Shown one piece after another: positions 36,001-39,000 of a stretch of 64,000 bases of DNA. The position numbers were made by a program. Positions within the stretch are counted from its first letter, which is position 1. Each line of letters begins with the position of its first letter. Source of the DNA: Escherichia coli (GTDB lineage Bacteria > Pseudomonadota > Gammaproteobacteria > Enterobacterales > Enterobacteriaceae); NCBI RefSeq assembly GCF_024298765.1, contig NZ_CP101211.1; one strand, 5' to 3'.

Positions 36001-39000
36001 TGGTGCGATCCAGTGACGACGGAAGACCAAATGCGTTGGGCTGCATAATTCTGCTGGTGAAGAGAGAGAGACCGCACAGTTCCGACGCTTCCGAGATTAA
36101 CCGCATCCCTTCTTCGAATTTCTGCATGGCCATATCCCGGGCGCTGATGAGCTGCCCTGTCCGGCTCGCCGGTACTGGCTCAGAACCCTGGTTTTGAGTC
36201 ATTTTACACTCCATTTTGGTATGTCAGAACATTTTGATTTGAGCAAAGGTAGGACACTATAAAACCTATAGAATTTACGTAGAAACGCGTTTAGTAAAGG
36301 CTTTACTAATTACTAATGACTAACATATTAGCACTTTCAGATATGCCAGCAATACCCCCAGCCAGTGAAATAATGTGATGAGCCCATTAATTGGGGGTAA
36401 TCATTCTATCTGGTTGATATTTAACGCTTTTAATTGTCATCCTTATGTAAGCCTATGGGATTTACTCCTAATTAAATCCCATTGTATGAAAAATAGGCAT
36501 TTATAAGCTTTCATGACGTGACGTTGTCACGTATATCAATGGAATTTAGTCACTAGTAAAGAGTTAACTAGTGACTATCTGCCTAATCGGTGTGCTTGAA
36601 CGGTGCACTCCAGGGCGGATATAAAAATTGATGAGAGATATACAGAAAATGATGGACCGGCTTAATAAGCCAGCCTTTCTTGGGAGGATTGATGCTGCTG
36701 AACACGCTATAAAGCGAAAATGCCCCTTTTTAACCTATAGGTAGGGCACTATGAGTAAGATACAATCAAATCGCCAGTCAGATGGCTAATTTCATGATGA
36801 CCAAAGCGGGCTATTTCAAGCGTTATCGCTGAGACGAGGCTTCAATGACAAGTACACTTGACCCATCACACAAGCAAATTGAAATGTGGCGCAGAGCTAC
36901 CGGTTCCGAAGGTGGACTCGACGAATACCGCAACTGGGTTCTGGAAAATAGTATGAGATTTACAGCATACGGTATCCATACCGTTATCGTCGAAGGTGAG
37001 GCGAAGCATATAACAGCGCTTGATGATGTTACCCTCTGTAACGAGTGGGCGAAGCTTAAAAGAGAAAACAATAGGCTTTACGCAGCAAATGAAAAAATTT
37101 GCTCTGGCTGGCGTGGTTTTGTGTTGCGTTTGTTAGGAATAACACTGTCATGCAGAAAACCGGTCATCTTACTGGGGGCAGACGCGAAGAATCAAAATGA
37201 TGCCGTGAAAGGGGCTGATTTGTAATTTTCAGGCGAGCCCACCGTTCTTAGAAAGCTGTTCTATGGGTATGTAAGGAAGATAATGTTCTCTGAACGCTCA
37301 GTACACTTAATCACTTCCTGTACAAAGGGCAAGAATCATCAGGGCCACGTCTGGCCGACATTGGACATAGATCCAAAACAAACCCCGGACGACGCAGCAT
37401 ATGCCTGGAGTAACATTGTAGACGACGCCAGAAGTAATCAGGCGGTACCGGCATTGTCCTTGTATTCAGGTAATCACTGGTCTACGGCAAAGGAAATTTT
37501 AAACTCAACCAGAAATCTGGAGTTGTGGATAATCTCTGCCGGGATGGGGTTTTTAAATAGTCGAGATCGGGTGCCCTCTTACGAGGCGACATTTCATCAA
37601 GTACCATTCAGGCATGATCTCTGGTGGAAAGCCATCACAAAATCACTAGGTAAGCATAACCGTTGCGCAACTATAAGCCAGTTAATGCAGTCCAGCCCGA
37701 ATGATGAATATTTGATTGCGGCTTCGCCTGTTTATATTGCTGCTGTCCAGAATGACATCCTGAAGGGCATTGAGAGTTTGACTCATCCTCTTACGCAACT
37801 AACGATCGTGACATCAGGGGCATATGCTGGCCCACTTGAAGAATACTTAATTAAGAGTTCTTCAAGAATGATGAAAGAGCTAGAGTGCAATATGGTGTGC
37901 CTGAATATAAAACTGGCTCAATACATACTTAAAAGTGGTAGTCGTTAGAACTAGACTGTTAATGATACAATTCTCCGGTAATGACTCCAACTTATTGATA
38001 GTGTTTTATGTTCAGATAATGCCCGATGACTTTGTCATGCAGCTCCACCGATTTTGAGAACGACAGCGACTTCCGTCCCAGCCGTGCCAGGTGCTGCCTC
38101 AGATTCAGGTTATGCCGCTCAATTCGCTGCGTATATCGCTTGCTGATTACGTGCAGCTTTCCCTTCAGGCGGGATTCATACAGCGGCCAGCCATCCGTCA
38201 TCCATATCACCACGTCAAAGGGTGACAGCAGGCTCATAAGACGCCCCAGCGTCGCCATAGTGCGTTCACCGAATACGTGCGCAACAACCGTCTTCCGGAG
38301 CCTGTCATACGCGTAAAACAGCCAGCGCTGGCGCGATTTAGCCCCGACGTATCCCCACTGTTCGTCCATTTCCGCGCAGACGATGACGTCACTGCCCGGC
38401 TGTATGCGCGAGGTTACCGACTGCGGCCTGAGTTTTTTAAATGGCGGAAAATCGTGTTGAGGCCAACGCCCATAATGCGGGCGGTTGCCCGGCATCCAAC
38501 GCCATTCATGGCCATATCAATGATTTTCTGGTGCGTACCGGGTTGAGAAGCGGTGTAAGTGAACTGCAGTTGCCATGTTTTACGGCAGTGAGAGCAGAGA
38601 TAGCGCTGATGTCCGGCGGTGCTTTTGCCGTTACGCACCACCCCGTCAGTAGCTGAACAGGAGGGACAGCTGATAGAAACAGAAGCCACTGGAGCACCTC
38701 AAAAACACCATCATACACTAAATCAGTAAGTTGGCAGCATCACCATAGTGTAGGTATTGGAACAGGTTTAGAATTAGGACATTTCCAGTTTATGTTTGGC
38801 TATGATTACCCTCTTAGTAACAGTTCGAAAGATCCAGACCTAAGTCAAGTACGCCAACACAACTTCAGAGCAAGTATAGCATATTCATTTAGAAAGCTAA
38901 AAAAATAAAACTAACCTAGGGCTTTGGATATTTTCAAGGCATCTGATAAAGACTTAACATCATGGGTGCGGAGATAATCTGCACCTTTTTTGTATGCATA

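Follow-up and report, generated by a model that had tools for sequence, protein, structure and literature searches.

Candidate operator palindromes upstream of a DUF4942 and coiled-coil protein operon in the IncHI plasmid backbone

A 64,000-nucleotide stretch of Escherichia coli DNA (NCBI RefSeq assembly GCF_024298765.1, contig NZ_CP101211.1; hereafter the window) contains an intergenic gap between two divergently oriented genes, in which a reading made without database searches (the sequence-only reading) had noted two distinct perfect palindromes at 36513–36577 and had proposed that they are operators for plasmid regulators or part of an origin or a partition site. The first of these proposals is favoured here with moderate confidence: judged from the sequence, the palindromes are probably two of four operator-type sites that control an operon of the IncHI plasmid backbone encoding a DUF4942 protein and a KfrA-like coiled-coil protein. 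The four sites are dyad-symmetric and unique on the plasmid, they are conserved as islands with constant arms and free centres, and one of them lies in a fixed geometry beside a conserved predicted extended −10 element.

The window is backbone of an IncHI2 plasmid. Hundreds of IncHI2 plasmids of 150–300 kb from Salmonella, E. coli and Enterobacter are essentially identical to a 2-kb query, and the intergenic gap with its palindromes is carried by 1172 plasmid records. The complete plasmid used for comparison was pD90-1 (NZ_CP022451.1), an IncHI2 plasmid of 222 kb in which the gap lies at 216–217 kb. The flanking genes are divergent, as had been stated, but the gap is probably 642 bp long and not 630 bp as given, the likelier start codon of the DUF4942 gene being the ATG at 36202, which has a GGAG sequence 6 nt to its 5′ side. 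The elements of the gap are as follows (no strand is assigned to the symmetric elements or to the island).

36268..36282, island tAGAATTtACGTAG, between O_L and the DUF4942 start, in the predicted mRNA leader
36292..36322, O_L, 31 bp, four heptads (TAGTAAA ggc TTTACTA ATTACTA ATGACTA); holds the perfect palindrome 36291–36309
36325..36352, minus strand, P_left, a predicted leftward promoter with −35 TTGCTG (36352–36347), a 16-nt spacer and extended −10 TGcTAATAT (36333–36325)
36453..36484, P3, a long dyad of the form C-n-R-TGGGATTTA-c N4 aat-TAAATCCCA-T-n-G
36516..36532, P1, the first reported palindrome, with arms 36516–36522 and 36526–36532 and the conserved core GTGAC-N3-GTCAC at 36518–36530
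36547..36577, O_R, 31 bp, four contiguous heptads (TAGTCAC TAGTAAA gag TTAACTA GTGACTA)

The second reported palindrome is perfect as described, with 11-bp arms (TAGTCACTAGT, 36547–36557, and ACTAGTGACTA, 36567–36577, separated by N9); if one mismatch is allowed, its arms lengthen to 14 bp around a spacer of 3 bp. The first is perfect over 7-bp arms (ACGTGAC-gtt-GTCACGT), but reading of the sequence and a repeat finder both show that the outer bases quoted with it (TG.../...TA) are unpaired. Two further perfect palindromes in the gap had been overlooked, one at O_L (TTAGTAAAG g CTTTACTAA, 36291–36309) and one at P3 (ATGGGATTTA N8 TAAATCCCAT, 36455–36482, with perfect 10-bp arms at 36455–36464 and 36473–36482). 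Perfect inverted repeats with arms of at least 11 bp and a spacer of at most 12 bp occur six times in the window compared with 0.1 times in shuffled sequence; the remaining long inverted repeats of the window are G+C-rich and lie outside the gap. Repeats with 7-bp arms are common in the window (145 observed, about 50 in shuffles) and one alone is unremarkable. The significance of P1 therefore derives not from the length of its arms but from the GTGAC-N3-GTCAC core, which is kept in all ten of the diverged lineages that were compared. This core occurs once in the window. No further copy of either reported palindrome exists in the window or on the whole IncHI2 plasmid, and none of the four has a second copy on pD90-1, where shared 11-mers are at chance level. 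When 100,044 species genomes were scanned for exact copies of the P3 palindrome, eight chance matches in unrelated taxa and no relatives came up. In the R478-type sublineage of IncHI2 the second palindrome carries a single substitution (36552 A>T) and its perfection is lost. A minus-strand −10-like sequence (TACnAT) beside P3 was rejected as a promoter element, because it belongs to the P3 dyad itself and forms its outer portion.

The second palindrome shares its 7-bp building unit, TAGTnAn, with the palindrome at 36291. O_L and O_R are each arranged around an inverted core of two heptads separated by 3 bp (7-3-7), with heptad orientations of 1+3 and 2+2, respectively. Clusters of at least three such units number two in the window and two on pD90-1, all of them in this gap, against 0.08 in shuffles. 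As there are no further copies on the plasmid, the sites are local and not part of a plasmid-wide regulon. The two arrays are spaced by about 260 bp (262 bp in IncHI2) and flank approximately 230 bp.

Comparison with related plasmids, a check that the sequence-only reading had itself named, favours the operator proposal in that the elements form conserved islands in diverged non-coding DNA. Plasmid databases provided, besides two types of IncHI1, two sublineages of IncHI2 whose gaps are about 91% identical, and six further lineages were taken from contigs carrying homologues of the coiled-coil protein at 34–54% identity. Relatives of the head domain of this protein form a family of 16 representatives; a word-indexed protein search with the head domain gave mostly fragments. 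The ten lineages all carry the DUF4942/coiled-coil operon, with coiled-coil proteins that are 34–56% identical and DUF4942 proteins that are 49–66% identical. The IncHI1 DUF4942 and coiled-coil proteins share 64 and 42% identity, respectively, with those of the window, and the IncHI1 gap is largely unalignable (41% invariant); the islands that stand out in it are O_L, ATTAGCAC, P3, CGTGAC-N3-GTCAC and O_R, with P3 being the best conserved between IncHI1 and IncHI2. Within IncHI2, three substitutions fall in 120 element positions versus 44 in 270 other positions (p = 2 × 10−5).

The order of the elements (O_L, P3, GTGAC-N3-GTCAC, O_R) is the same in all ten lineages. The P1 core is invariant in each of them and encloses seven different spacers (GTT, GGT, ACC, ACT, CTT, AAC and AGT), while the outer two bases of the 7-bp arms seen in the window vary. 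O_L has a 7-3-7 core in ten of ten lineages, always accompanied by one or two additional heptads, and three of the seven core pairs change on both sides. A heptad array occupies the place of O_R in nine, with variation in the number and orientation of the heptads; in the remaining lineage, L029, this stretch is weak. The arms of P3 are kept in seven or eight lineages, its central four nucleotides vary and five of its 12 pairs change on both sides, with L029 having another palindrome in the same place. In the ten-lineage alignment 80.6% of the cells of the four dyads are paired, compared with 29–43% in slid controls, and 12 pairs change on both sides compared with 6.5 in shuffles (0/500). The combination of conserved arms with free centres, as in the P1 spacer and the central four nucleotides of P3, is the pattern of DNA bound by a dimer and not that of a hairpin. 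The island at 36268–36282 (tAGAATTCACrtAG) also consists of invariant or near-invariant columns in this alignment.

The strongest functional clue is the position of O_L relative to P_left, for which the transcription start site is predicted. P_left was placed by a weight-matrix scan and has a counterpart in IncHI1. Its extended −10 element coincides with the island ATTAGCAC, which IncHI1 and IncHI2 share without change. In nine of the ten lineages a minus-strand TGnTAnnnT has its first T 41–43 nt from the first base of O_L. The −10 element of P_left ends 2 nt from O_L and the predicted start, at about 36318, falls within the outermost heptad. With this fixed geometry, O_L would cover approximately positions +1 to +27 of transcription of the DUF4942 operon.

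By analogy with KfrA of the IncU plasmid RA3, the likeliest candidate to bind the heptad arrays is the 401-residue coiled-coil protein encoded in the operon. This protein is weakly KfrA-like: it has the architecture of KfrA-type proteins, and one homologue (P0019, 34% identical) gives a sub-threshold match to KfrA_N (E = 9 × 10−4, 20.3 bits, under the cut-off of 26.1), but the window protein has no KfrA_N match and matches only coiled-coil entries of Pfam and NCBIfam. In L029 the core heptad differs (TCATAAC ttt GTTATGA) and so does the putative recognition helix (GGRIHNATTAF versus GGSFARAQEMF); this is one event of co-variation, and it fits the coiled-coil protein as the heptad binder. Candidate binders of P1 and P3 are the helix-turn-helix head of a C5 DNA methyltransferase encoded nearby, by analogy with enzymes of the SsoII type, and the DUF4942 protein. 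The methyltransferase contains the only recognized DNA-binding Pfam domain among the neighbouring proteins (DNA_meth_N, PF18284; 27.8 bits, over the cut-off of 25). A search of the Protein Data Bank (PDB) with an AlphaFold model of the DUF4942 protein, of predicted local distance difference test (pLDDT) score 81, gave no match. No ribbon-helix-helix repressor was detected by Pfam or NCBIfam among the neighbouring proteins, small ones included. The region upstream of the methyltransferase gene (30700–30905) contains no P1-like site or comparable dyad, and P1 lies 4 kb from this gene.

These features suggest a scheme in which O_L, directly downstream of a leftward extended −10 promoter, would when occupied by protein block initiation or early elongation. 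The coiled-coil protein would bind the arrays in the manner of RA3 KfrA, leading to tight autorepression of its own operon. O_R might act on the variable rightward genes or serve as an auxiliary operator, and P1 and P3 could be separate dimer-binding sites for another protein of the same module. The scheme presumes that P_left fires, that each site is paired with a protein and that binding brings about repression.

Several observations weigh against the operator reading. A scan with a generic σ70 consensus found no promoter in the gap, and P_left rests on an extended −10 element with a weak −35 element. No conserved rightward promoter is found by O_R, where IncHI1 has TTAGTA-16-TATAAT and IncHI2 only TGCCTAAT. 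P1 and P3 lie 150–260 bp to the 5′ side of the predicted start, a long distance for simple repression. A DNA loop joining the two arrays was dropped as an explanation, since helical phasing fits the 262-bp spacing of IncHI2 but fails across lineages. Besides the missing KfrA_N match of the window protein noted above, a model of its coiled-coil head (pLDDT 74) matched nothing in the PDB. Literature searches on DUF4942, IncHI operators and the motif strings returned nothing on this locus, and in particular no binding, transcription-start or expression data. Finally, R478-type IncHI2 plasmids carry a Tn7-like element of approximately 22 kb, with a tnsA-like end, repeated TACAACTTTA end motifs and the genes pco, rcnA and mcr-9, inserted at GTAGG (36246–36250) with a 5-bp duplication (L015:3330–3400; L027:23800–23850). 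The element parts P_left and O_L from the DUF4942 gene, so that control of the operon from P_left must be dispensable for survival of the plasmid.

The same arrangement could belong chiefly to a centromere-like or plasmid-positioning site on which the coiled-coil protein, perhaps together with DUF4942, assembles. Control of the promoter would then be secondary, as it is a side effect in parC of plasmid R1 and at the parS sites of pSM19035. Two arrays that flank about 230 bp upstream of a two-gene operon and travel with this operon across lineages would suit such a site, and the distance of P1 and P3 from the predicted start is easier to reconcile with an assembly site than with a simple operator. 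In RA3, KfrA depends on its repeat operator for stable maintenance and makes contact with the partition proteins (PMC7783346), and KfrA-type proteins have a link to segregation in other plasmids (PMC7783346). However, the proteins of the operon include no motor nucleoside triphosphatase (NTPase) of the ParA, ParM or TubZ type, and IncHI2 plasmids have ParAB and ParMR loci elsewhere. Each array holds only three to four repeats, and the R478-type plasmids tolerate the 22-kb insertion between site and operon. A chiefly centromere-like role is considered unlikely, although it is the most credible of the alternatives; a centromere-like second role beside promoter control is conceivable, and the earlier partition-site proposal is neither supported nor refuted.

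A function of the palindromes as single-strand hairpins, either as a promoter or priming signal on the strand transferred in conjugation or as stem-loops in untranslated RNA, is very unlikely. It would draw on the folding of the gap as single-stranded DNA, which is better than that of shuffles for both strands (z = −3.2 and −3.5), on the P3 pairs that change on both sides and on the occurrence of the DUF4942, yafA-like, orphan methyltransferase and H-NS families in other plasmids, with an annotated yafA-named homologue. The folds, however, are short local hairpins without a long Frpo-like stem containing promoter boxes; a single-strand promoter of the Frpo type, with one hairpin of about 300 nt and the −35 and −10 elements in its stem, was not found in the gap. 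The arms are conserved and the loops vary, the reverse of selection for structure only, and the conserved P1 core would form a stem of only 5 bp with a 3-nt loop. Pairs are broken without compensation in several lineages, as at P3 in L035 and L037. There is also no Rfam match to the elements: in a scan of 35000–38000 the sole match was Hammerhead_HH9 (22 bits versus a gathering threshold of 52) at 36125–36189, inside the DUF4942 coding sequence, and was regarded as noise. Intrinsic termination was rejected, since all four dyads are AT-rich and none is followed by a T-tract; terminator-like hairpins occur only at 36655–36675, outside the palindromes.

The remaining proposal, that the region is a replication origin, a transfer origin or a site-specific recombination site, is the least credible and is regarded as highly improbable. 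The gap is long, non-coding, AT-rich and rich in dyads, but it contains no DnaA boxes, no origin-type iterons and no credible dif-like site or Ter core. On pD90-1 a distance of 62–115 kb separates it from both rep genes and from the Tra2 genes for transfer, with the rep genes at approximately 102–118 kb and the gap at 216–217 kb, and the suggestion that the palindromes are part of an origin is not upheld. The transfer origin of IncHI1 has been mapped inside the Tra1 region. Recombination is disfavoured by the spacers and arm contexts, both of which differ between lineages, and by the absence of an adjacent recombinase gene. In consensus searches of the gap no CRP, LexA, IHF or DnaA sites were found, the FNR and Fis consensus gave loose or degenerate matches only, the one dif-like match had eight mismatches, and matches to the Tus Ter core with one mismatch occurred only elsewhere.

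The operator reading is also placed in context by the genes around the gap, which are listed below. The rightward genes together span 36845..37948.

30905..32332, plus strand, orphan C5 DNA methyltransferase (PF00145, E = 4 × 10−75) with an N-terminal DNA_meth_N helix-turn-helix (PF18284)
34182..35387, minus strand, 401-residue coiled-coil protein, second gene of the leftward operon; N-terminal helical head followed by a long coiled coil
35384..36202, minus strand, DUF4942 protein, first gene of the leftward operon (Pfam DUF4942, E = 2.8 × 10−26)
36845..37225, plus strand, 126-residue yafA-like protein, on the rightward side
37283..37948, plus strand, DUF6884 protein, following the 126-residue gene on the rightward side

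A conserved module has the order C5 methyltransferase, small open reading frame (55 residues), DUF1173, coiled-coil protein and DUF4942. The methyltransferase is co-located with the operon in IncHI1, in IncHI2 and in four of the six metagenomic or genomic loci (L028, L029, L031 and L035); the methyltransferase and DUF1173 are visible on some but not all of the six homologue contigs. On the rightward side the genes differ by lineage, with DUF6884, yafA-like, FRG-domain and H-NS neighbours, whereas the left operon is constant, which indicates that the cis elements travel with the left operon. In a broader interpretation, clearly improbable on present evidence, the 290-bp region would be the cis-acting heart of an uncharacterized module comprising the orphan C5 methyltransferase, DUF1173, the KfrA-like coiled-coil protein and DUF4942. 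Such a module may constitute an epigenetic or establishment switch, in which the GTGAC/GTCAC half-sites are read or methylated by the methyltransferase and the coiled-coil protein occupies the heptads. If so, the expression of early or anti-defence genes would be set after entry of the plasmid into a new cell.

On the rightward side, the 126-residue gene and its own upstream region (36640–37282, with TAGGTA-17-TACAAT at 36738–36766) are missing in IncHI1, where the DUF6884 gene comes directly after the operator cluster. Homologues of the 126-residue protein are found on many plasmids of approximately 90–130 kb from E. coli, Salmonella and Shigella and on Klebsiella plasmids, and one of them is annotated yafA. 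A copy of IS1 (37992–38689) starts 44 bp past the DUF6884 gene and stands in place of the genes for a 151-residue protein, a 78-residue protein and H-NS that are seen downstream in other IncHI2 plasmids. Adjoining this copy is an open reading frame of 263 residues (38911–39702) that may encode a sul3-type dihydropteroate synthase, a candidate identity based on the look of its sequence.

Within the gap, the window has a C at position 36355 where pD90-1 and, by their identity figures, most other IncHI2 records have an A. The C lengthens a run of C and completes an 8-bp inverted repeat with 36392–36399; the gap is at its most variable around this position. A direct repeat, AGGTAGGRCACTAT, is present at 36247–36260 and 36739–36752, with TAGAAT or TACAAT 8 nt after each copy. 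It was rejected as a shared promoter box, as it is not kept in IncHI1 and one copy overlaps the target site of the Tn7-like element. Its CACTATA core resembles phage promoters of the SP6/K11 type; the annotation of the plasmid includes no phage-type RNA polymerase. Four near-matches to the 36247 repeat that contain GGACACTAT are clustered at approximately 131.6–133.3 kb of pD90-1 (within L010), in an unannotated 3.8-kb stretch reaching from a TraC-family gene to parA, and may form a family of repeats that belongs to the region for partition or transfer.

In Salmonella, E. coli and Enterobacter, plasmids of the IncHI1 and IncHI2 groups confer resistance to multiple drugs, to colistin (mcr-type) and to heavy metals, and for most of their backbone genes the function or regulation is not known. 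The present analysis yields a testable regulatory map of one such locus, consisting of the predicted promoter P_left, the heptad arrays O_L and O_R as putative operators, the dyads P1 and P3, and named candidate binders. If the operator reading is correct, control through KfrA-type iterated operators would extend to the IncHI group and would provide a handle on DUF4942 and its partners; no general principle would be altered.

Among characterized systems, the Omega repressor of pSM19035, a ribbon-helix-helix protein, recognizes operators made up of contiguous heptads, some direct and some inverted, that overlap promoters and double as centromeres. The arrays described here likewise consist of contiguous direct and inverted 7-bp units, but the Omega consensus is WATCACW, its operators have 7–10 units and no ribbon-helix-helix protein was detected at this locus. 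In C5 methyltransferases of the SsoII type, an N-terminal helix-turn-helix binds a regulatory palindrome of 15 bp. The methyltransferase of the module has a DNA_meth_N head and P1 is of similar size (13–17 bp); unlike the SsoII-type site, P1 lies 4 kb from the methyltransferase gene and not in the promoter region of that gene, there is no restriction partner gene and the sequences are unrelated. The par promoter of plasmid R1 is flanked, within parC, by two arrays that have five iterons each. The similarity here is that two repeat arrays lie upstream of a two-gene operon and could join autoregulation to a role in cis; the differences are the absence of an actin-like or other NTPase motor, fewer repeats and a much greater distance between the arrays.

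The closest parallel is with RA3, in which KfrA acts as an autorepressor of its promoter by way of an operator of five contiguous 9-nt repeats in the orientation 3+2 (PMC7783346). The KfrA motif has no other copy on RA3, and full repression needs three to four repeats (PMC7783346). As in this operator (O_K), the sites described here are contiguous short repeats in mixed orientation that overlap a promoter, in this case a predicted one, the motif is confined to one locus of the plasmid, and the product of a neighbouring gene combines a small helical head with a long tail of coiled coil. They differ in having a 7-bp unit (TAGTnAn) instead of a 9-bp unit, a 3-bp gap at the point of inversion and two arrays about 260 bp apart instead of one. 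The coiled-coil gene is in second place, after DUF4942, the similarity to KfrA_N is sub-threshold, and binding to the arrays is proposed by analogy with RA3. The locus thus most likely represents ordinary plasmid gene control, seemingly undescribed for this locus, that comes closest to the iterated operators of the KfrA type.

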